This document shows positions 479-47,401 of a DNA stretch of 64,000 nucleotides, piece after piece (within the stretch, counting starts at the first letter, position 1; each line of letters starts with the position of its first letter). Origin of the DNA: a phage. Position numbers and translations under genes: made by a program. Where the stretch lies: NCBI GenBank assembly GCA_024449565.1, contig GCA_024449565.1_4810.1. One strand, given 5' to 3'. The notes beneath the pieces are model-generated. The model ran no database searches, was not told where the DNA came from, and saw only the letters and a list, made by a program, of their open reading frames with translations.

Positions 479-1939
479 TTAAAGGTTAGAGAAGAAGCCG
501 GATGCTGCAACAATTGGTTTCATCAACGCCATGATTGCTGCGTCCGCTTTGTTAGGCGATTTGACTCCACGCTTTGCCATATCCTTTTTCGATTCAACTT
601 TAAACTTACCAAGCACAGACGTGTCTTTGCGCGGCGCTGACATCTCAAAAAGAAATGTCTCAATTTCTTCCGCAGACCAAGCAGGAATCCCAAGTTCTGG
701 AATGCCGTCTGTGTCGATGGAAATCAGCTCATCAGTCGGGTATACGGCCTGCCCTGTTGCATACTCATATGTCTTCCTGAATCGTTCGGCAATCTCAGTC
801 CATTTTTGCGCTTTTATGTTTGCGAAATGGTCTTTATTGAGTATTTCAACGTGTGGTAACTCAAGGAAGACGTCATCAGGATCATCAACAGCACCTTGCG
901 CGTTGAACGCATTAAATTCGATTCTTGGGAATGTTGGATTTTCATGGATTGCATACTCATTAAGCTCATCAAATTTTGAACCAGCAAATGCACCAACACC
1001 GATGGCGTCATAGGTAATTGATGCGCCGAATGTTAATGCATCTTTCCAAACTCCGCTTGCGGACTTAAGCAATTCATCTTCCAGACCTTCCCATGTCTTG
1101 ATGCCGCGCAATACGTTGCCCGTGACAAATGCTGTGGCGTTTAAGTCGTCGCCGTCGTCCGCCACGTCGAAGCCTATACGGTTAGACCCTGACAAGCTCC
1201 ATCCCAGCGTAGGGTGTTTGTGGAGGTTTAGCGCGGCTTTGACGAATGCACGGTTGATTACAGATTTGTCGCCGCCAGTCTTCGGAACGCCGCCATAAAC
1301 GTGCTCTGCCTTTTTTGGGTCGCGCTCGTACATGCCTGCGATAACGTCCAGCATTGTTTGCGACAAGAATGGATTATCTTGCCAGTTTATCTTTTTAACA
1401 ATGGCATTCTTCGGCGGTCGCATAACAAAGTTCTGGTAGACAAAATCGGCCTCTTCATCAGGGTTAAAGATGATCCATATTTCTGACCCTTCTTTACGGA
1501 TTGTTGGCTCAATAATGTCCCACTGTTCTTCAGTAAGCGCGTGCGCTTCTTCCAGCCAAAGTACGTCAACACCTTCCGTTGATTTGATTTCATCAACATT
1601 ACGTGCGATACCATAAAATAGAAATTCAGATTTAGTTCTTTTATGTTCGATAGAGTTCTTTAATAAATTGAACTCATCTTTGAAATCAGAAATTTCTATT
1701 TTGTCTTTTAATAGAGTATATACAGATTCAGAAATCTTGTTCTGGAATTGTCGAACGCAAAGGAATTTTAATTTGAAGTTTGCCGCCAAATAAATAGCAA
1801 AACCAGCGGCATCATGCGATTTGGAAGATGCACGACCGCCGTATATTACTTTGTATCGCGCTTTCGTCTTCCAGACTTCTTTTAAAGCAGGATTCAACTG
1901 GTACATGACTTTCCAATTATGTGTTAGTATTTTATTCAT
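479..1939 (-). CDS. terL: terminase large subunit
   Basis: 486 aa; N-terminal ATPase region (KVIYGGRASSKSHD Walker A-like, VLWLEEAH Walker B-like) and C-terminal nuclease-like acidic region typical of phage large terminases. Confidence 0.8.
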   Translation of the reverse strand: MNKILTHNWKVMYQLNPALKEVWKTKARYKVIYGGRASSKSHDAAGFAIYLAANFKLKFLCVRQFQNKISESVYTLLKDKIEISDFKDEFNLLKNSIEHKRTKSEFLFYGIARNVDEIKSTEGVDVLWLEEAHALTEEQWDIIEPTIRKEGSEIWIIFNPDEEADFVYQNFVMRPPKNAIVKKINWQDNPFLSQTMLDVIAGMYERDPKKAEHVYGGVPKTGGDKSVINRAFVKAALNLHKHPTLGWSLSGSNRIGFDVADDGDDLNATAFVTGNVLRGIKTWEGLEDELLKSASGVWKDALTFGASITYDAIGVGAFAGSKFDELNEYAIHENPTFPRIEFNAFNAQGAVDDPDDVFLELPHVEILNKDHFANIKAQKWTEIAERFRKTYEYATGQAVYPTDELISIDTDGIPELGIPAWSAEEIETFLFEMSAPRKDTSVLGKFKVESKKDMAKRGVKSPNKADAAIMALMKPIVAASGFFSNL

Positions 1940-2015
1940 ATTATAGTTTGCTTGTACAATCTATATCAAGTAAAATTATGATTCCAGCTTAGTAGTGGAT
2001 AAAGGGTGATCTTTC

Positions 2016-2043
2016 GGCCAGATTCTTTCTGGCCATTTTTTTT
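2016..2043 (+). terminator. intrinsic terminator-like hairpin (ggccaga/tctggcc stem, T9 run)
   Basis: 7-bp perfect stem, 5-nt loop, followed by atttttttt on the plus strand. Confidence 0.45.
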
Positions 2044-2063
2044 GATTAAAATTCACAAAAAGT

Positions 2064-2091
2064 TTGCCTTTCTGAAATTCTGCATTATAAT
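2064..2091 (+). promoter_or_regulatory. sigma70-like promoter (TTGCCT - 16 bp - TATAAT)
   Basis: -35 TTGCCT at 2064-2069, -10 TATAAT at 2086-2091, about 27 bp upstream of the 2118 start. Confidence 0.45.
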
Positions 2092-2117
2092 CATATTAAC
2101 TCAAAACCGGAGGTAAT

Positions 2118-2333
2118 ATGAAACTCATCGACCGCGCCATCAAAGCCATTGATAATCACTCCACAGCGATTGCTTTCGTAATGGGATTTTGTTTCACTGC
2201 TGCGTTTGGCGACGTTCACACATTCAAGTCTGTCATCTTGTGTTGGTCCATTTGGTCACTTATTTCTCTGGTTTTGATTCTTCCGATGACGTGGCTTGTT
2301 CTTACTTGTCTTGAATCTCAAGGTGAAGACTGA
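2118..2333 (+). CDS. small hydrophobic membrane protein (71 aa)
   Basis: GGAGG RBS 6 nt upstream; two predicted hydrophobic helices. Confidence 0.6.
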   Translation: MKLIDRAIKAIDNHSTAIAFVMGFCFTAAFGDVHTFKSVILCWSIWSLISLVLILPMTWLVLTCLESQGED

Positions 2334-2554
2334 TGAGACTATCAATCAAAGAGCGGGCAAAGCGGCCCAAAAGGAGTGAGCCAAAGGCCAAATACACATG
2401 CGTTGGCGGACCGTTCGACGGTCAAGTGGTGTGGCTTTCAAAATCTAATCCATCGACGGTTGAGTTCAGCCTTCGTGGAATGCGCGGCAGATACCTGCTA
2501 AATAGAGAAACAAGTGGCAGCACATTTGTGGAGTGGAAAGAAAATGGCAAATGA
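2333..2554 (+). CDS. hypothetical basic protein (73 aa)
   Basis: ORF track; start overlaps upstream stop (TGATG). Confidence 0.5.
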   Translation: MRLSIKERAKRPKRSEPKAKYTCVGGPFDGQVVWLSKSNPSTVEFSLRGMRGRYLLNRETSGSTFVEWKENGK

Positions 2555-2777
2555 ATTAACCTTAACGGTGCCAAAAGAAGTGCTAGACAAGGCATATGCA
2601 GATTCTGTAAAAGAATTAGCCGTAGTGCTTGGAATTGAAAGTGAATTCAACGTTCAGCTTCAATTCCTAAAAGATACTCTTCAAATCAAAGAGAATAGAG
2701 AGGCTGGCGGCGGTGCGCCTTTAGCTTTGGCAATAATCTATGCGGGATTAATTTTGAAGTCTGGAGATGAACTGTGA
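2544..2777 (+). CDS. hypothetical protein (77 aa)
   Basis: Start moved to internal ATG at 2544 preceded by GGAAAG; the longer track ORF 2514 has an implausible N-terminus. Confidence 0.45.
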   Translation: MANELTLTVPKEVLDKAYADSVKELAVVLGIESEFNVQLQFLKDTLQIKENREAGGGAPLALAIIYAGLILKSGDEL

Positions 2778-2929
2778 ATCGTTGGTGCAGTTGGAAGTTG
2801 AAACGTCTTGCCTGGGCCAATGCCGCCAATTCTGCTGGTGTCATCACCGCTGGCGTTGGGTCGGTATGGGATGGCGAAGGCCGTTGGGACTCGCTGTGTG
2901 GCACGCGCCTATTCTTTCGCGTAAAATAA
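2774..2929 (+). CDS. possible small Trp/Gly-rich protein (51 aa, GTG start)
   Basis: GTG start overlaps upstream stop (GTGA); GGAG 9 nt upstream; followed by 8-bp perfect hairpin cccttccc/gggaaggg. Not in ORF track (below size cutoff). Confidence 0.3.
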   Translation: MNRWCSWKLKRLAWANAANSAGVITAGVGSVWDGEGRWDSLCGTRLFFRVK

Positions 2930-2973
2930 TTATCGCCCTTCCCGAAATGGGAAGGGAATTTAAAGAGGTTATC

Positions 2974-3315
2974 ATGAACAACACTTTGTCACAACTGTTA
3001 ATCTGGACTATCGCTGCTATCATCGGCACCGTTATTATGATGTCAAGTGCAAAGGCTGAAACGGATATTTGCGGCAGACTTATTTCTGAAAACGGCGAAA
3101 TTTATTATGGCAACTCAAAAGGTGATTATATATCGCCTGAAGTTTGCGCTCAGAAGAAAGCAGAAATGCAAAAGCAGTATCATGAAGATCAATCTATATC
3201 TCAAGCCGCGCTGATTGAATTAAGTATATCAGCCATCATCTTTCTAATCGTTTTTATGCTCATTATTAAACCAAATAATGGCAGCCACCGTCATATTCCT
3301 CTCAAAAGAAATTAA
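2974..3315 (+). CDS. secreted or membrane-anchored protein (113 aa)
   Basis: Start at internal ATG 2974 with AAGAGG RBS; N-terminal signal-peptide-like segment and C-terminal hydrophobic helix. The longer track ORF 2767 has a junk-like N-terminus. Confidence 0.55.
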   Translation: MNNTLSQLLIWTIAAIIGTVIMMSSAKAETDICGRLISENGEIYYGNSKGDYISPEVCAQKKAEMQKQYHEDQSISQAALIELSISAIIFLIVFMLIIKPNNGSHRHIPLKRN

Positions 3316-3353
3316 GGTTATAATACGGTTGTCGACAAAACGAGGACCGTAAA

Positions 3354-5264
3354 ATGCCAAGGCTAATATTCAAAAACAACTTTGAGGTCGCGCTCGCTCA
3401 GCCAGCGACGACTTCAGACACCACAATCACAATCCGCTCAGGGTCGGGCTTTCCGACCTTGGGCGCAAACGAGCGTGTAGTGGCGACAGTCGTCGACGCT
3501 GCAACAGGCCTCCAATTCGAAATCATCACTGTAACAGCCGTGGTTGGAAACGTGCTAACCGTGCAGCGTGCACAGGAAGGGACTGCAGCGCGTGCATGGA
3601 GCGTCGGAGATTTTTTATCCATAAGGGTGACGGCTGCCATATTGACAAGCACAGTAAGGAATTTTGGAGAATTACCTTCTGGAATAAACTTAAATGCCCT
3701 TACTGGTTCTTGGTTCGGTCAATACCAGCAGTCTTCTAATTCTGCGGCTTCGCAAGTTCTGAATTATCCTGTAGCCCAATCAGGCAGCCTTGAGGTTATT
3801 TGCTCGGCAAACAACTCTGGTGACCAATCTTGCACGCAAATATACAGCACGAATCCTGACAACAAGCAGTACAAAAGAACTTATAATTCAGAAACAAGCA
3901 CATGGTCTACTTGGGCTAAAATATATAACTCTTCCGACGTGATTCCAGTCTCCAATGGAGGGACTGGTGTTTCAGACATAGGATCAATAAGAAGAGCAAT
4001 ATTGGTGCAAGGACTTGAATGTAATGATCAAACTGGTCCCCAATCATACAACAGCTATCGTTCACCAAATTCAGCATACACATGGAAAATAGATAACTCA
4101 GGACTTGTGCAAGTCATAAAGACTTCTGATGGTTCTGCAGTGCCAATACCTATTGAATCAGGAGGGACTGGTGGAATAACTGCTTATAGTGCAAGGGTTA
4201 ATCTCTCTTTGGATAGGCTGCGCCAAGAAGGTGCTTATACAGAACTGAATTCTGCGAACGGAAGATATAGATTTCTTGTAAATGATTCAGGAGATTGGGG
4301 AGGTTTTGATGGTTCCACAAACGGCTGGAAGCCATTGGCAATAGCGCAGGGAGGGACTGGATCAACCACGTTGGAAGGAGCAAGAACGAATCTGAAAATT
4401 GACAGGTTCTTGCAAGGTGATATTGATACAAAAATATCAACGCCTGATTCGCAATACAACTTTTTCATCACTGACGCTGATTGGGGTCTTTATGATGTAA
4501 CATCACTAAATAGAGTTGCACTCCCAATTGTCAGCGGCGGCACAGGCGGAGTAACTGCTGTTGAATCTTGCAAGTCTCTCGCAGCGATGCATTATAAATA
4601 CCCAGCGCAAACATCATTTGGGCAGCAATACATGGAGACTGGGGTTGGATATTACAGCACTGATCAGTCACCAAGTCCAGGTGGAAGCGGTTCTCCATAT
4701 AACTATGCCGAGATACTTACTATATCTGAATTTGGTAATGGAGCTAACTATTCTCAAATCGCATTTTCAGTGTTGACGGAACAACCGCCGCGATACAGAC
4801 AAAGGTTTGACTCTAATCCAAGGTTGACTAATTGGCGAGATTTCCTTATTCGCGATTTGAATACCAGCGTAGACAGCAACGGATTCATAAAAATTGCTTC
4901 ACCAATAGTCAAAATAAGATTTGATGGATCATTTGAGCTGAACAGCGAGTCAGAAGGCTGCACAGTGTCAAGAGAAGGAAAGGGGCACTATTTGATAAGC
5001 GGTTGCCTCGGATTAAATAGTGATGCCGCCTGGGGAGGCGTTAACGGCGGCTTTGAAATTCCAGTTGATGTGAATAAACAGCCTAGAATTTGGCTTGACT
5101 ATAAAGTGAATGAAGATGGATCAGTTGACGTATTCACATATCACAGGGTGCACAATGATGCCCCAGTTTTTGCAAGGAATAACCTTGAAGGTTATGCAGA
5201 CGGAGACCCAATAGACATACCAAAGGATGCATTTATCTCTGTGAGGGTGCAAATGCCAAAATAA
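3354..5264 (+). CDS. tail fibre-like protein with repeated GGTG motifs
   Basis: 636 aa; GAGGA RBS; four copies of [IV]xxGGTG[GAS]x(6-8)AR.NL motif typical of phage tail fibre shafts; Ser/Asn/Gly/Thr-rich. Confidence 0.7.
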   Translation: MPRLIFKNNFEVALAQPATTSDTTITIRSGSGFPTLGANERVVATVVDAATGLQFEIITVTAVVGNVLTVQRAQEGTAARAWSVGDFLSIRVTAAILTSTVRNFGELPSGINLNALTGSWFGQYQQSSNSAASQVLNYPVAQSGSLEVICSANNSGDQSCTQIYSTNPDNKQYKRTYNSETSTWSTWAKIYNSSDVIPVSNGGTGVSDIGSIRRAILVQGLECNDQTGPQSYNSYRSPNSAYTWKIDNSGLVQVIKTSDGSAVPIPIESGGTGGITAYSARVNLSLDRLRQEGAYTELNSANGRYRFLVNDSGDWGGFDGSTNGWKPLAIAQGGTGSTTLEGARTNLKIDRFLQGDIDTKISTPDSQYNFFITDADWGLYDVTSLNRVALPIVSGGTGGVTAVESCKSLAAMHYKYPAQTSFGQQYMETGVGYYSTDQSPSPGGSGSPYNYAEILTISEFGNGANYSQIAFSVLTEQPPRYRQRFDSNPRLTNWRDFLIRDLNTSVDSNGFIKIASPIVKIRFDGSFELNSESEGCTVSREGKGHYLISGCLGLNSDAAWGGVNGGFEIPVDVNKQPRIWLDYKVNEDGSVDVFTYHRVHNDAPVFARNNLEGYADGDPIDIPKDAFISVRVQMPK

Positions 5265-5338
5265 TTCACTCAAGGCGCTGAAAAGCGCCTTTACTTTATG
5301 CGCTATTAAGTTATACTCATTATACGTTAACAAGTGAG

Positions 5339-5629
5339 GTGAATGAAATGAAATTTGAAGACATCGACAAGGCCCAAAAAGCAAAGGCGCTGCCTAAATA
5401 TGTCATCTGTGGTATTGACCCTGAAGATAACCGCTTGGTTTTCTTAAAGCAAGTTGATAGCAATGAATCTGGCGACGCAGCTAATTGGTGCACCCCTTTG
5501 TTTGAGACAGCAGAAGAAGCCCAGAAGGTATTGTCAGAAAGCAATTTACCTAAACACTACAGTGTCGTTTCACAAGATGACATGGCAAAATTAGTGTTTA
5601 ATTTTTATGGATATGGGAGAAGATTCTAA
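5339..5629 (+). CDS. hypothetical protein (96 aa)
   Basis: ORF track; AAGTGAGGTG RBS upstream. Confidence 0.5.
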   Translation: MNEMKFEDIDKAQKAKALPKYVICGIDPEDNRLVFLKQVDSNESGDAANWCTPLFETAEEAQKVLSESNLPKHYSVVSQDDMAKLVFNFYGYGRRF

Positions 5630-5838
5630 TGGAAATTAAATTATTGTCTGATTTCGTAAAAAGTATTGAAGCCAAAGGCATGACAATCAAGGCTAAGAAA
5701 GGCGGCCTTGTTTGCATCGATAAGCAACAAAGTGATCAGAGTATATCTCTTGATGATATCAAGACAATGCAAAAGCTCAATAAGAAAGGTGATTTACACA
5801 AGTTCTTAACGGATATTGGAGCGGTGGACAATGGATAA
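5629..5838 (+). CDS. hypothetical protein (69 aa)
   Basis: ORF track; start overlaps upstream stop (TAATG). Confidence 0.5.
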   Translation: MEIKLLSDFVKSIEAKGMTIKAKKGGLVCIDKQQSDQSISLDDIKTMQKLNKKGDLHKFLTDIGAVDNG

Positions 5839-6334: not shown

Positions 6335-6583
6335 ATGAATCAAAATGAATCAGTAGCGTTCTTACAATGGCTGGAAGGTGTTGTGGAGTATTACGCTCCA
6401 AAAGACCGTTTCATCTTTCAAGGCAAAAGTTATAAGCGCAAAGGACAGGCCCAGAAAGCTGCGCGCAAGTACTGGAAAGAAGTTTATTCAGAGTTCTTTC
6501 AGCAGATGGGCATCATCGGCTCGACCGTATCCGGCGACCCAGCACAGTTGGTATCGATTGATGAATCCAATCGTCACAATTAA
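6335..6583 (+). CDS. hypothetical protein (82 aa)
   Basis: ORF track; GAGGA RBS upstream. Confidence 0.5.
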   Translation: MNQNESVAFLQWLEGVVEYYAPKDRFIFQGKSYKRKGQAQKAARKYWKEVYSEFFQQMGIIGSTVSGDPAQLVSIDESNRHN

Positions 6584-42867: not shown

Positions 42868-44652
42868 TTATGCGCTTCTGTACCAGCCGTTCAAGACGAC
42901 ATATCGCGGCAGAGTTGAAACAGCCGTCGGCACGGACTGTCCTGCATCGCCAGTGTTACCGACCACATCGTGAGTGTGAGCGGGAAGTGTATAGCTGTGG
43001 CTGTGATTTCCGGAAAATTGAATATTCAAGCCATGGGTGTGTGAACCAGAAGATTGAATATTGTGGACATGGTTGCCGTTAGTTGAAGTGTTGAATTTGT
43101 AGTTATCATAATCCGTCTTTCTGCTTCCAATGTTGTTGTTTGTTCCATCATAAACTCCGTATCGAGCTTGGTCGGCAAACGCCTCGCCCCATCCGCTGTC
43201 GTGATGGTGGTTACCAGCTGCATCCATACCGTGAGAGTGAGCACCGTTTTGGCTTGTATCACCTATGTGGTTATGGTTGCCTGCGTCTCCAGTGGTATTT
43301 GACCATGGACCACTTTGTCGCGTGGTAATGTTCACGCTGTGATTGTGGAGTGGAAGCATTGCAGCGGTAAGGGTAACAGAGTCTGCACCGCCTGTATCAA
43401 GACCGTTTCGCGCCGTGCCAGACGTGCGAATCACCATGTTATCAGGCAACCTTGTCCATACCTGACCGTAAGCGCCCAGTTTAGTATTTGGGTTAGTCCC
43501 GTTGGTAAGGAATCGAGTCTCACCAACTTCGAATACGTCGCCCATGGTAATCAACTTCGCGGCAAGCGCGTCAAGTTGCCTTTTGGTAACAAATTGCTGC
43601 GGCTCCGTAGCATCAACGCCGATTTGCGCCGCGCCGAATGCCTGAAGAAGACGCCAAACAGTGCCGTCATAGATGATGGTGAATGGCAACAGGCCTACGA
43701 TAGCGCCAGCTGGCAACTCGCTGCCGTCGAATCCAAGAACGGCAACTTTGTTTACACCAATGGTCACGGTGACAGGTCCGGTAGTCGTCACATCATTGAC
43801 GATTGTCAGGCGACTACCTGCTGACGGAGGCCATGAATACCCTGCTGGAACGGTAAGGATTATGTCTTGCGCTCCTTTACCTGATGCAAGATTCGGCGTT
43901 CCAATTTGCACGTCTTGAACAGTGGCATTTTGAATCCAAGCACTCCAAGCACCAGAAGTATAAGAGCGAGTAAACAAATAGCCATTCATTGATGTATATT
44001 GCTGCAAGGCAAAGGTTTGCGCATCGACCTGCCAAGCGCAGACCTGCAGCCGACCTGCAACCTTCGTTGCGCCAACTGCATTCGGGATGTTAGAGCACAG
44101 AGCGGCGACGGAATCGGATTGAATCACGATAGTTGTGGAAGTCGTGATATTATCGAAGTCCACAAAACTTGAAATCAATCCACGAACAAAGTACGGGTTT
44201 TGCGCATCGCCGCCAGCAGGCATCGGAATGTATTTTCGCGCTTCGCTGGGCAGCGTTAATTCCTGCCAAGATTCCGTTTCTCCGTTGGCTGGCACGGCGC
44301 TTGTGTTGCCGTCGACCACGCTTTGAAAGATGCGCCACTCAGGCGCTGAAGGCGTTCCAGAGTTGCTTACTACGATGGCGTTTTTCGGGTATCCATCCGG
44401 CTTCAAGTCAGAAGAGAAATATTGTTGAGCGCCATGATCTTGAATAAACATAAGGTTGTCTGTAATCAAATTCAGCAACCAGTTCATGGATTCGCGCTCA
44501 ACAGCTTTCGCGGCGACGTTTCCAGCCTCCAGGGCAAGCGCATAGTCAGGGGTGTAGCCGCGCTGGAAGTTCACATAACCACTTGGGCTTGCATCCGGCA
44601 CCACGGATACATCACCGCTTTGCGCGAAAGGTCTGTTAATAAGTGTTGGCAT
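42868..44652 (-). CDS. tail fibre protein with C-terminal His-x-His repeat region
   Basis: Start moved to internal ATG with GAGGA RBS (MPTLINRP...); C-terminal 150 aa contain many HxH motifs as in metal-binding tail-fibre tips. Confidence 0.65.
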   Translation of the reverse strand: MPTLINRPFAQSGDVSVVPDASPSGYVNFQRGYTPDYALALEAGNVAAKAVERESMNWLLNLITDNLMFIQDHGAQQYFSSDLKPDGYPKNAIVVSNSGTPSAPEWRIFQSVVDGNTSAVPANGETESWQELTLPSEARKYIPMPAGGDAQNPYFVRGLISSFVDFDNITTSTTIVIQSDSVAALCSNIPNAVGATKVAGRLQVCAWQVDAQTFALQQYTSMNGYLFTRSYTSGAWSAWIQNATVQDVQIGTPNLASGKGAQDIILTVPAGYSWPPSAGSRLTIVNDVTTTGPVTVTIGVNKVAVLGFDGSELPAGAIVGLLPFTIIYDGTVWRLLQAFGAAQIGVDATEPQQFVTKRQLDALAAKLITMGDVFEVGETRFLTNGTNPNTKLGAYGQVWTRLPDNMVIRTSGTARNGLDTGGADSVTLTAAMLPLHNHSVNITTRQSGPWSNTTGDAGNHNHIGDTSQNGAHSHGMDAAGNHHHDSGWGEAFADQARYGVYDGTNNNIGSRKTDYDNYKFNTSTNGNHVHNIQSSGSHTHGLNIQFSGNHSHSYTLPAHTHDVVGNTGDAGQSVPTAVSTLPRYVVLNGWYRSA

Positions 44653-44662
44653 TGCCGTTCCT

Positions 44663-47401
44663 CTACACGATGTATTTAATTTTTGATAAAAGGGTTGATG
44701 CCCAATCACCAGTTAAGTCAGTTATGTTCATGCTTGAAACATAACCGCCAGCAGCACTTCTTGGAAAGTTTACTGTCGCTACAACATCCCCATTCGAAGC
44801 TATCAATTGAACTCCAGTCGCCAGTGACCCTGGGTTTTTGATGTATATAGAAGTTGCAGTTTTCTTTGCAAAGTCTTCGCTTGTTGAAATCGCAAGCGCA
44901 TTCATCGTATTACCAGAAACAAGCATCAAGCTTAAAATATCAAGTTCAAGAGTCGTACCAACTTCGGTCGGCAAGTCTTTCCCTGATATCAAGCCAATGC
45001 TTATTCCACCTGTCGAACCATCCCAAGTCGTTCCTGCAACAATCTCAGCGGCAAGGTCAACTTCGATACGTTGCAAATCACCTGCGCCTATGCTGTAGAA
45101 TTTAGGGATATAGCCGCCCATACCATCCGGTACGGTTACGAAAAGTTTTTGACCGTTTACCGTGTTGTTTTTAACTATTGCGATAAATGACAAAGGACCA
45201 GTCAGGCTGCCAGTGTATTTAGTAGCAAGTACAGCGCGTGCATAACCGGACGCTGGCACAGTTCCTATTGTAGCGGAAAGCTTGAATGATGGGAACTGGT
45301 TGGGCGCACCGCTGATTGGCGTCGCCGTTACCGTGTTATCTCCGTCCTTGACGATATTGCCAAAAGATGTGCCGTCATTGGGCTGTGTGTATCGCCAGTA
45401 GTTTGTGATCGCGGCACGTGGGATTTCACGACCAAAGTCATCTCTTGATGCTTTTGAGATTGAATAGTCGTTGACAAGTGCGCCGTCGATAACTTGGTTC
45501 ACACCTTTCAGAGATTCAAGCTGTCGTATTACGCCTTTAAAGTTGTTCAGCGGCCACTCGTTTATGCCGCCAACTCTGATGATGCCGTCAGTGTTAATCC
45601 ATGCGACACCTTCCGTTTCGAATCCTACTCGCGTGTCTGTTATGTTGCTGACAGTCAAATCAATATCAGATAAGTCTGCGACTTCTTGGTAAAGCTGCCA
45701 ACGTATTCCGGCATTTGCTGGCAAGAATCCTTCATTCCTGTCGCCAACTAGCGTCTTAAAGTTGTCGGATAAGTTGTTGGCGAAATAAGGCCCGATGACA
45801 TATTCCATGTAATAGTCAGCGGTCGGCGGCGGCGGTACGCCGTCCAATCGGCTAACGTTCCATGAGCGTCTGATGCCGTCAGTCTCTGCAATCAATGTTG
45901 CGTTTCCTGGGTACGGGTAGCCGCCGATTGAACCAGAGTATGCAAGCGATGAACCAGGCTGCATGAATGATTCACCTACCACGCCATCCCTTGTTGTCAA
46001 CGGACCGTTTGCGCAAGATATGTTGTTGAGCGTTCCTGCCGTAACAGACAGGATTGCCGTTCCATCTGCAGGAGGATTTTGAGTCCCATAGAAATAAGGC
46101 TCAGGCCCATTAGGATTTTGAACAGGGTCGCAAACACAAATGGAGTATCCAAAAAGAAGCGCATCAGACCCTTCAGGCAATTCGCGAGTCTGGGTTGATC
46201 CAGCGGCAGTTGCTTTCAACTCAATTGAAAAGCTTGTTTTCACCCCAGCCGTCGCGTTTGCAGTTTGCTCTACAATCCAGATTCTGTACCAATCGCCGCC
46301 GATTGCCTTGATGCCACCACGATTTGATTCCCTTCTCACACCGTCGAACTTGCCTGTGATGAAATAACTCAAAGAAGAGTCAAGGTTGAACTGCCCAGTC
46401 ACTGGGTCGAAAAGTTTTCCATTACTCGATGCATCACTGTTCTCTGTTACGGAAACAGAAGCCACGTTTTCAGAAAGCACTTTTATGTAGAAGCTATAGC
46501 AAACGTTGACACCAGCCTGAGAAGGAAGCGCAATAGATTGGGCGCTTGGATTATTGGCCAAAGAATACACAGGCTCGCCGCTGGAAGCGGTCTTGATGAC
46601 CCGTACTGCGTTGGCGAAATTCTCTATGGCCTCTCCTGGGTAGTCACCGCACAGTTGTCCGTAATAGTCAGGGCCGCCATATTGTCGTGTATCGCCGCCG
46701 ACAATACCAGCGCCGGAACCATTGCCCCATGAATACCAGTCTGGGTGCGCCATCCGTGACACGGTGCCTGACACTCCGCTGATGGTAAGTCCTGCGTTGT
46801 TGCCATGGCTTAAAAGTATCTGCTTATAATCGTGCTGAATCTCAGTTGACCCTTGCCAGTCGTACAGAAGGAATGAGCCATTGGTTGATTCAGACGAAGA
46901 CACCGCGCCTTGAGTATTGTCGGTCACATATGCGTAGCGTGATGAAGAATAATCCCAAGCCTCTCCACGGTTGAAAATCCACTTAAGCATGCGGTTGATA
47001 CTTTCGATGCGGCCATCACTTGTAAGCGTCAGATAACGAAGCTTAAGAAGTATGCGTGCTTCTTCGATATTCTTTACAACCTTCCCGCCAGCACCAAAGA
47101 AGTTGCCGCCGATGTTGTCCGCACCTTCAAAGTTGTCGCGCGTCGGTCCAAACGCCCAGTTGTGCTCATAATTGCTTAAGTCCACAAAGTCTCTTGGTAT
47201 GCAAAGAATGTCGCACCAAATATAAATGCCCATTGCATCACAAGTATCAATGTTGAATATGTTCTTGTACCAGTCAATCCAAAACTGATCTTGATATCGC
47301 TCGTACCAGTCACTTTTCTTTTGCACCAAAGATGTGATGTTTGGCGCATTGTTCTGCATCCACTTAAGGTTTTGCAACAGGTTTGTGTCAAACTTTTGCA
47401 T
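44663..47401 (-). CDS. large tail fibre or baseplate-associated structural protein (912 aa)
   Basis: Position between baseplate-like gene and tail fibre; Gly/Ser/Asn/Thr-rich. Confidence 0.55.
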   Translation of the reverse strand: MQKFDTNLLQNLKWMQNNAPNITSLVQKKSDWYERYQDQFWIDWYKNIFNIDTCDAMGIYIWCDILCIPRDFVDLSNYEHNWAFGPTRDNFEGADNIGGNFFGAGGKVVKNIEEARILLKLRYLTLTSDGRIESINRMLKWIFNRGEAWDYSSSRYAYVTDNTQGAVSSSESTNGSFLLYDWQGSTEIQHDYKQILLSHGNNAGLTISGVSGTVSRMAHPDWYSWGNGSGAGIVGGDTRQYGGPDYYGQLCGDYPGEAIENFANAVRVIKTASSGEPVYSLANNPSAQSIALPSQAGVNVCYSFYIKVLSENVASVSVTENSDASSNGKLFDPVTGQFNLDSSLSYFITGKFDGVRRESNRGGIKAIGGDWYRIWIVEQTANATAGVKTSFSIELKATAAGSTQTRELPEGSDALLFGYSICVCDPVQNPNGPEPYFYGTQNPPADGTAILSVTAGTLNNISCANGPLTTRDGVVGESFMQPGSSLAYSGSIGGYPYPGNATLIAETDGIRRSWNVSRLDGVPPPPTADYYMEYVIGPYFANNLSDNFKTLVGDRNEGFLPANAGIRWQLYQEVADLSDIDLTVSNITDTRVGFETEGVAWINTDGIIRVGGINEWPLNNFKGVIRQLESLKGVNQVIDGALVNDYSISKASRDDFGREIPRAAITNYWRYTQPNDGTSFGNIVKDGDNTVTATPISGAPNQFPSFKLSATIGTVPASGYARAVLATKYTGSLTGPLSFIAIVKNNTVNGQKLFVTVPDGMGGYIPKFYSIGAGDLQRIEVDLAAEIVAGTTWDGSTGGISIGLISGKDLPTEVGTTLELDILSLMLVSGNTMNALAISTSEDFAKKTATSIYIKNPGSLATGVQLIASNGDVVATVNFPRSAAGGYVSSMNITDLTGDWASTLLSKIKYIV

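Follow-up and report, generated by a model that had tools for sequence, protein, structure and literature searches.

The variable lateral tail fiber of a Wifcevirus phage with a Kuravirus-like distal module

Phages of the genus Wifcevirus have tail fibers of two sets, a conserved one encoded in the tail locus (Gp32 of Bas99) and a variable one (Humolli et al. 2025, PMC11990801). The variable set (Gp114 of Bas99) has a conserved N-terminal attachment domain, and its published T-shaped end comprises a gp12-like receptor-binding domain (RBD1), a T5-like receptor-binding domain (RBD2), and a C-terminal intramolecular chaperone (PMC11990801). In the Kuravirus SU10, gp12 is a proximal fiber protein with a separate distal protein, gp13, at the elbow (PMC9509320). 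Here, we analyzed a 64,000-nucleotide (nt) stretch of phage DNA (GenBank assembly GCA_024449565.1, contig GCA_024449565.1_4810.1; hereafter, the window) and discuss its gene at 3354-5264, which encodes a fiber of 636 amino acids (aa). In our assessment, it is most probably the variable lateral fiber of a Wifcevirus phage, bearing a Kuravirus-like distal module and recognizing the host on its own.

The open reading frame (ORF) begins with ATG at 3354, and its stop codon ends at 5264 on the plus strand. The product matched the profile PHROG 1591 “tail fiber protein” (E value 1e-91), and its sole Pfam match was PF25670 (Phage_tail_C_2; aa 503-636, 195.8 bits against a cutoff of 27), whose profile was covered entirely (positions 1-133 of 133). 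A sequence search of PDB returned three fiber proteins. The exact motif GGTG occurs four times (aa 202, 270, 333, and 395; intervals of 68, 63, and 62 aa), against a mean of 0.045 in shuffled versions of the protein, none of 20,000 of which had four. The exact 636-aa sequence was not found in a collection of approximately 15 billion sequences. The initial annotation of this DNA had described a fiber-like plus-strand protein of 636 aa with four GGTG repeats, and the ORF, the motif count, PHROG 1591, PF25670, and the PDB matches agree on it. The surroundings were also described correctly: the gene lies among small genes (a plus-strand block from 2118 to approximately 7235, mostly small ORFs), 37.6 kb from 42868 where about 38 kb from the minus-strand fiber genes had been given, and it is a genuine tail-fiber gene that lies apart from the tail module on the opposite strand.

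3354-5264, plus strand: coding sequence of the variable (second) lateral tail fiber, identified by PHROG 1591 and by the positional orthologs AV128 WPK38425.1, Bas99_0109, and vBEco4M7_27
3342-3346, plus strand: Shine-Dalgarno-like GAGGA, 8-12 nt 5' of the ATG, read directly from the sequence

By megablast, the window belongs to Wifcevirus, with 29 matching records (Escherichia coli and Shigella myoviruses of 66-72 kb); TH32 comes nearest in backbone, aligning over 81% of the first 25 kb with 93.6% identity. The genome measures approximately 68.5 kb in full, of which the window is 64 kb, and the part beyond the window contains, according to the AV128 annotation, connector, minor-capsid, and portal-size genes, two small ORFs, and the terminase. 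The minus-strand morphogenesis region runs past the window end up to the large terminase gene (479-1939, minus strand), which is divergent from the fiber gene with approximately 1.4 kb between them, and the fiber gene adjoins the morphogenesis region on the full genome map. Residues 1-105 of the fiber were present in all 29 Wifcevirus records of the phage collection at 87-97% identity. Locus position was checked in seven relatives (AV128, Bas99, Bas100, SP13, vB_Eco4M-7, ECML-117, and the metagenomic contig L065), and each had the same plus-strand block with the same neighbors and orientation beside the divergent terminase; anchor presence was checked in all 29 records. The window gene thus has both the position of the variable fiber, in a plus-strand block beside the divergent terminase outside the tail module, and its strongly conserved N-terminal anchor, whose columns were invariant in the alignment of relatives. 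Comparison with the Bas99 locus, where Gp114 is Bas99_0109, identified the gene as the variable one of the two published sets. As judged from gene order, the fiber gene is not displaced in this genome, because the anchor occurs in 29 of 29 records and the locus is the same in every relative inspected; “displaced from the structural module”, as initially proposed, was therefore incorrect. The feature is an ordinary, already published trait of the genus, new only in its rare allele architecture, which is already in GenBank (AV128) though undescribed.

Orthologs of this fiber have been detected by mass spectrometry. The vB_Eco4M-7_27 protein gave 34 peptides, 80% coverage, and the top score of all proteins, and ECML-117 gp24 was also detected (PMC7048862); we confirmed the orthology of both by locus position. 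The evidence for a place in the virion is indirect: the proteins came from phage lysates in which a helicase was present as well, and the two phages have the S74 allele described below.

The fiber can be divided into five modules, listed here with the repeat motifs.

3354-3653, plus strand: N-terminal anchor (aa 1-100), conserved genus-wide
3654-3950, plus strand: pyocin-knob-like domain (aa 101-199), matching the R2 pyocin fiber 6ct8_A at aa 102-198 (E value 1.7e-5)
3951-4613, plus strand: shaft of four repeat units of approximately 63 aa (aa 200-420), placed by the GGTG positions and by colinearity with Bas87_0008
3957-3968, 4161-4172, 4350-4361, and 4536-4547, plus strand: codons of the four GGTG motifs, from a motif scan
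4614-4853, plus strand: pre-tip segment (aa 421-500), variable and of low AlphaFold2 confidence as a monomer
4854-5261, plus strand: PF25670 (Phage_tail_C_2; aa 501-636), a compact β-rich fiber end (Pfam E value 3.6e-58)

The anchor is 97% identical to that of AV128 and 90% to that of Bas99 and matches aa 4-98 of the GP4 podophage tail fiber (8jov_1, E value 2.5e-7). It was found in 124 phage records comprising podo-, sipho-, and myoviruses. Among 38 IMG/VR loci analyzed, it stood at the extreme N-terminus in nearly all, the distal parts were highly diverse, and the combination of anchor and PF25670 occurred in none. By this distribution, the anchor is a promiscuous module. The knob is 100% identical to that of AV128 and 57% to that of Bas99, and a homologous fragment carries the NCBI name “pyocin knob domain-containing protein”. 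Each repeat unit opens with P-x-x-x-x-GGTG and continues as AR-x-NL…DR…D-WG. In the AlphaFold2 monomer (38 sequences), the PF25670 part had a predicted local distance difference test score (pLDDT) above 90 and formed a compact β-rich domain, a β-sandwich of roughly 135 aa, and aa 420-510 were poorly predicted.

Distal to aa ~205, the alignment of relatives separates the Wifcevirus alleles into two unrelated classes. The Peptidase_S74 (S74) or T-shaped class includes Bas99, Bas100, SP13, vB_Eco4M-7, TH32, WFC, ECML-117, FEC19, and one more IMG/VR contig, whereas the PF25670 class consists only of the window, AV128, and the metagenomic fiber P0097 on contig L065. The T-shaped end is absent from the window fiber: there was no Peptidase_S74 domain, no similarity past aa ~205, and no such module elsewhere in the window. 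TH32, although nearest in backbone, bears the S74 allele, and allele type is therefore independent of backbone relatedness. P0097, the third allele of the PF25670 type, was recovered only by an exhaustive HMMER search, and a metagenome scan for the junction of knob and first repeat found no relatives. The AV128 paper makes no statement on the AV128 fiber, and P0097 is likewise undescribed in the literature searched. As a side observation, the SP13 (OP352608) ortholog at 3501-5810 is annotated “endo-N-acetylneuraminidase”; its only Pfam match is Peptidase_S74, and the enzyme label is probably an annotation artifact and no evidence of an enzyme.

The exchanged DNA has sharp boundaries and is itself a mosaic.

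3725-5258, plus strand: cassette differing from Bas99 and other S74-type genomes, delimited by local blastn, with both flanks 87-94% identical
4103-4637, plus strand: sub-module of repeats 2-4, diverged even from the other PF25670-type alleles (blastn against AV128 and L065)

DNA homology to Bas99 extends over 1907-3724 at 94% and restarts at 5259 at 93%, so that the right boundary is the stop codon, just 5' of a terminator-like hairpin (5272-5291). Within the cassette, blastn detected no similarity of 4103-4637 to AV128 or L065, whereas the rest was alignable; therefore, the repeat array was exchanged separately.

The distal half points to a Kuravirus-like source. Residues 200-635 are colinear with aa 490-923 of Bas87_0008, the proximal long-tail-fiber protein of AnnaHegner, a Gordonclarkvirinae podovirus (Kuravirus), with 53% identity and 2 gaps, and all four GGTG motifs are in register with those at aa 492, 560, 621, and 683 of that protein. 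The window fiber thus shares the GGTG shaft and PF25670 end of a Kuravirus-type proximal protein. The podovirus-adaptor-docking N-terminus is lacking, as there was no similarity to Bas87_0008 before its aa 490, and a separate distal fiber gene as in Kuravirus was not found in the window or the AV128 segments searched. The C-terminal domain also aligned with aa 649-784 of SU10 gp12 (7z47_D; PDB match, E value 9e-62), a part without experimental structure since only the N-terminal 90 residues were built (PMC9509320). Similarity to Bas87_0008 begins exactly at the first GGTG motif, which is also present in Bas99-type alleles, and this motif is likely the crossover point. The cassette has a GC content of 0.431 and a third-codon-position GC content (GC3) of 0.34, compared with 0.481 and 0.47 for anchor plus knob and a GC content of 0.43 for the Kuravirus locus; among stretches of equal size, the cassette value is no lower than the 15th percentile, and it weakly supports a Kuravirus-like donor. 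The suggestion in the initial annotation of an independently acquired host-range determinant is borne out insofar as this is the variable fiber and its distal part was gained horizontally, as indicated by the cassette 3725-5258, the colinearity with Kuravirus, and the lower GC. We consider the variable fiber likely to be the host-range determinant of the phage. Separately, the metagenomic fiber P0099/P0241 is nearer than AV128 to the window fiber over aa ~330-636; its N-terminus is another one, and its repeat units are ordered differently.

PF25670 ends fibers in many phages. The family had 676 cluster representatives at E ≤ 1e-3, and the domain was always C-terminal. In the best 150 representatives, 0-103 aa followed it (median 24.5), and 15 of the 150 ended at the domain, as does the window fiber at its last residue, the remainder extending 4-103 aa past it. 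The “tail fibers protein” of T1 is a member; the cryo-electron microscopy map of T1 shows no lateral fiber density (T1 structure paper). A literature search for PF25670/Phage_tail_C_2 and PDB entry 8JOV returned nothing relevant. In lambdoid prophages of Enterobacter and Salmonella, PF25670 proteins of 360 aa are encoded by the last tail gene, which follows GpJ at the prophage edge, and in the siphovirus NHEP3 the PF25670 fiber is the last tail gene with no fiber gene after it.

The fiber is probably self-sufficient, working without a partner or dedicated chaperone, because no homolog of a distal fiber or T-shaped end was found, its neighbors do not depend on the allele, and PF25670 proteins end tail modules elsewhere. 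As tblastn queries against the window and the available AV128 segments, we used the Kuravirus distal fiber Bas87_0009, five T-shaped ends of Wifcevirus fibers, and the S74 fiber of a temperate phage contig (L063; whole protein and N-terminal 100-120 aa), and nothing was significant; the best matches (E values 0.025 and 0.85) both fell within a 912-aa wedge gene described below. For the region beyond the window, the AV128 annotation lists no fiber gene. We rejected an allele-specific chaperone in the flanking genes, since phages bearing the other allele have neighbors that are 97-99% identical; these genes had no Pfam, PHROG, or NCBIfam matches.

A plausible arrangement can be outlined. The fiber would presumably be a homotrimer, by analogy with other fibers, fixed to the baseplate by aa 1-100, with the pyocin-like knob, the four-GGTG shaft, the variable pre-tip, and the PF25670 β-sandwich following outward. 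Recombination at the shared GGTG motif probably brought in the Kuravirus-like module in place of a T-shaped end, with the stop codon and terminator flank as the other boundary. Acting alone, the fiber would make the primary, reversible contact by which the host is recognized and would set host range, its end (aa 421-636) presumably binding the receptor, and the conserved 613-aa fiber of the tail locus would serve a later, invariant step. Wifcevirus phages depend on the O-antigen (literature). Several observations weigh against this account. SU10 gp12, the nearest characterized relative of the distal half, is a proximal protein bearing a separate distal one, so that the PF25670 end need not be what binds a receptor; with 50-70% identity among phages that infect many different enterobacterial hosts, PF25670 varies unusually little for a part that would determine specificity; the model of anchor plus knob (aa 1-210), built from 9 homologs, had a mean pLDDT of only 57 and was discarded; and the BASEL authors regard the relation of the two Wifcevirus fiber sets as unclear (PMC11990801).

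If the end confers specificity, the better candidate within it would be aa ~450-500 of the pre-tip, the least conserved stretch of the family (top-residue frequency 0.26-0.37 at aa 451-500, compared with 0.57-0.86 in PF25670). Alternatively, the conserved PF25670 could bind a conserved ligand. A specific version, in which PF25670 is the receptor-binding tip and its target a surface structure conserved among enterobacteria, such as the lipopolysaccharide core or enterobacterial common antigen, seems to us unlikely, but it would explain the 50-70% identity of the domain across phages of E. coli, Salmonella, Enterobacter, Proteus, and Xenorhabdus. It would also mean that a swap from an O-antigen-specific T-shaped end to PF25670 turns serotype-restricted primary adsorption of a Wifcevirus phage serotype-independent, and that anchor, knob, and GGTG junction form a natural socket for re-targeting. 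Conversely, PF25670 may be a universal docking hub for an unrecognized partner.

The last idea leads to the best surviving rival, to which we give little credence: the protein would be the proximal part of a two-protein fiber, with PF25670 as the docking platform for a separate receptor-binding protein, either encoded at another place or unrecognizable by sequence. The homology of aa 200-635 to the C-terminal half of SU10 gp12 and Bas87_0008, whose genes are followed by a distal fiber gene, speaks for such a connector, and strong conservation of PF25670 would suit a protein-protein interface. In the T5-like phage TrudiRoth (MZ501109), moreover, a 35-aa ORF annotated “tail fiber protein” (6410-6517) stands right after the gene of the PF25670-type lateral fiber; this ORF may be a remnant of a lost distal fiber gene, and it had no similarity to the two distal fibers compared. 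Against a connector stand the empty partner search, the AV128 annotation, and the identity of the neighboring genes in phages with the other allele, as well as the prophage and siphovirus fibers that end tail modules with no later fiber gene. In addition, PF25670 as a docking site is itself hypothetical in Kuravirus, where only 90 N-terminal residues of gp12 are resolved.

The contig that supplied one of the queries (L063; Logan SRR18080419, 26.7 kb, with an integrase) deserves mention in its own right. At 1481-4544 it encodes a PF25670 fiber followed by a Peptidase_S74 fiber, and the first 35 residues of the two are 49% identical (E value 2.6e-8). The shared N-terminus therefore makes them parallel fibers on one type of anchor, which favors self-sufficiency, and a reading of them as a second proximal and distal pair was rejected, both proteins having the same N-terminus. 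By sequence, the pair mirrors the alternation of the Wifcevirus alleles. Its PF25670 fiber is the closest known relative of aa ~330-636 of the window fiber, with the GGTG units in a different order.

Less credible still is that the gene is a recombinant which lost its receptor-binding end and plays a structural or spacer role, leaving host recognition to the conserved 613-aa fiber. Both receptor-binding domains described for the genus are indeed missing from the window allele, and the combination is rare (window, AV128, and one metagenomic contig). However, three independent alleles (636, 665, and 603 aa) are in frame despite a 12-23% DNA difference in the tip, their repeat segment was exchanged separately, and AV128 is a viable isolate. 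Intact, diverged alleles with separate repeat exchange therefore argue for a function under selection.

The genes at 42868-47401 bear on a further rival, that the fiber gene was recently displaced or is a third, independently acquired receptor-binding gene private to this genome. The minus-strand gene at 42868-44709 encodes the conserved fiber, a homolog of Pbunavirus gp47 (E value 4e-32) with at least 95% identity across the genus. Its listed GTG start gives 613 aa and a 47-nt overlap with the upstream gene, the AV128 annotation gives 595 aa, and the true start is probably further downstream. The minus-strand gene at 44663-47401 encodes 912 aa, of which aa 3-184 match the Pbunavirus baseplate wedge/triplex proteins gp45/gp46 and DUF2612; the Pbunavirus counterpart has approximately 500 aa, and the remaining ~700 aa had no match in PDB or Pfam. 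We rejected it as a fiber, since no test indicated one and its N-terminal part is a wedge/triplex homolog. Two weak matches to S74-type fiber segments lie inside it (45833-45967, E value 0.025; 46013-46180, E value 0.85), and the protein could be the docking site of the second fiber or hold a fiber-like insertion. Because 44663-47401 encodes a wedge/triplex homolog, only 42868-44709 of the region 42868-47401 is a fiber gene, and the 636-aa protein is the second fiber of the phage, not the third receptor-binding protein that it had been taken for. Homologs of the conserved fiber were found in approximately 290 Pseudomonas records (those listed being genomes of ~66 kb), compared with 18 matching the anchor of the variable fiber (those listed being F10-like siphoviruses and Itty13). 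With these counts and the anchor in 29 of 29 Wifcevirus records, acquisition of the variable fiber by the lineage is old and lineage-wide. The rival draws on the 37.6 kb and the opposite strand that separate the gene from the tail-locus fiber, but the genus-wide 5' end, the matching flanks in all inspected relatives, the age of the acquisition, and the wedge homology of the supposed fiber gene leave it scarcely tenable, and its “displaced” part is already refuted.

An enzymatic tailspike or depolymerase, as the initial annotation had considered, deserves next to no credence: the protein has no enzymatic Pfam domain, its C-terminal β-sandwich of ~135 aa has no β-helix or glycosidase match and leaves no room for a catalytic domain, no tailspike depolymerase fold (β-helix or other glycanase or esterase) was found, and Foldseek against viral models matched the C-terminal domain to fiber and spike C-termini only, which answers the proposed choice between enzymatic and lectin-like against an enzyme.

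The gene is flanked by the following features.

2064-2091, plus strand: sigma-70-like promoter TTGCCT-16-TATAAT at the head of the plus-strand block, intergenic with the terminase gene; consensus match only
2974-3315, plus strand: upstream neighbor, a 113-aa protein, 97% identical to AV128 and Bas99, whichever the fiber allele
5272-5291, plus strand: terminator-like hairpin, 8 nt past the stop codon and within the conserved right flank; consensus match only
5348-5629, plus strand: downstream neighbor, a 93-aa protein, 99% identical to Bas99 (S74 allele) and AV128 (PF25670 allele)

At 3319-3324 there is a TATAAT with no −35 element, and the scan returned 20 promoter-like sites where 12.9 were expected. 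The 93-aa protein is the same with both alleles and is therefore not an allele-specific chaperone. Its identity is only 62% to the counterparts in Bas100 and vB_Eco4M-7, which have a different C-terminus. Its ortholog vB_Eco4M-7_26 (gp26, 10.5 kDa) was detected by mass spectrometry with 62% coverage (PMC7048862), and the protein may be virion- or fiber-associated. For the ortholog of the 113-aa protein, the vB_Eco4M-7 record gives a signal peptide and a transmembrane domain. In the ORF list, the 113-aa gene is merged with an upstream in-frame stretch (182 aa, 2767-3315). A small membrane protein beside a receptor-binding gene resembles superinfection-exclusion genes such as llp of T5.

Biocontrol and therapy are potential uses of Wifcevirus phages, several isolates of which infect O157 strains; reports credit them with very fast replication, and the variable fiber is thought to set their host range. 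At least two distal architectures, unrelated to each other, occur on the same anchor within the genus, with the first GGTG motif as the probable exchange point and the terminator flank as the other homology arm, and the cassette would need no co-transferred chaperone or partner gene. These features should aid sequence-based prediction of host range and the design of fiber swaps. PF25670 is functionally uncharacterized, although it ends fibers in at least 676 protein clusters, including a fiber protein of the classical phage T1.

Among known systems, the closest are AV128 WPK38425.1 (OR352958) and P0097 (ENA ERZ27301696, contig k141_36659), which have the same chimeric architecture and locus, 74% and 73% overall identity, respectively, and 97-100% identity in anchor and knob. 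They differ in the repeat region, which makes the AV128 fiber 29 aa longer (665 aa) and P0097 33 aa shorter (603 aa), and their tip DNA is 77-88% identical to that of the window. Bas99_0109 (Gp114 of ManiWeber/Bas99), vB_Eco4M-7_27, and ECML-117 gp24 share the locus, the flanking genes, and presumably baseplate attachment and a role in host recognition; the Bas99-type fiber has the anchor (90%), the knob (57%), and the first GGTG motif in common with the window fiber, but its distal ~430 aa are unrelated, with RBD1, RBD2, and the S74 chaperone in place of four GGTG units and PF25670. The GP4 podophage fiber (8jov_1) shares only the anchor module (aa 4-98) and the R2 pyocin fiber (6ct8) only the knob module (aa 102-198), and both differ in virion type and distal end. 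Stand-alone PF25670 side fibers (T1, the siphoviruses NHEP3 and MM01, and the 360-aa Enterobacter and Salmonella prophage proteins) have a terminal domain 47-73% identical to that of the window fiber and close the tail module, neither a partner nor a chaperone gene following them, whereas their N-terminal anchors are unrelated and they have 0-1 exact GGTG motifs instead of four. Finally, the Kuravirus proximal protein (SU10 gp12, Bas87_0008) is colinear over its C-terminal 436 aa and has the same PF25670 end, but the window fiber lacks both the adaptor-binding N-terminus of that protein and its long proximal part (aa 1-489), and the Kuravirus gene is followed by a distal fiber gene (gp13 or Bas87_0009) of a kind not found here.

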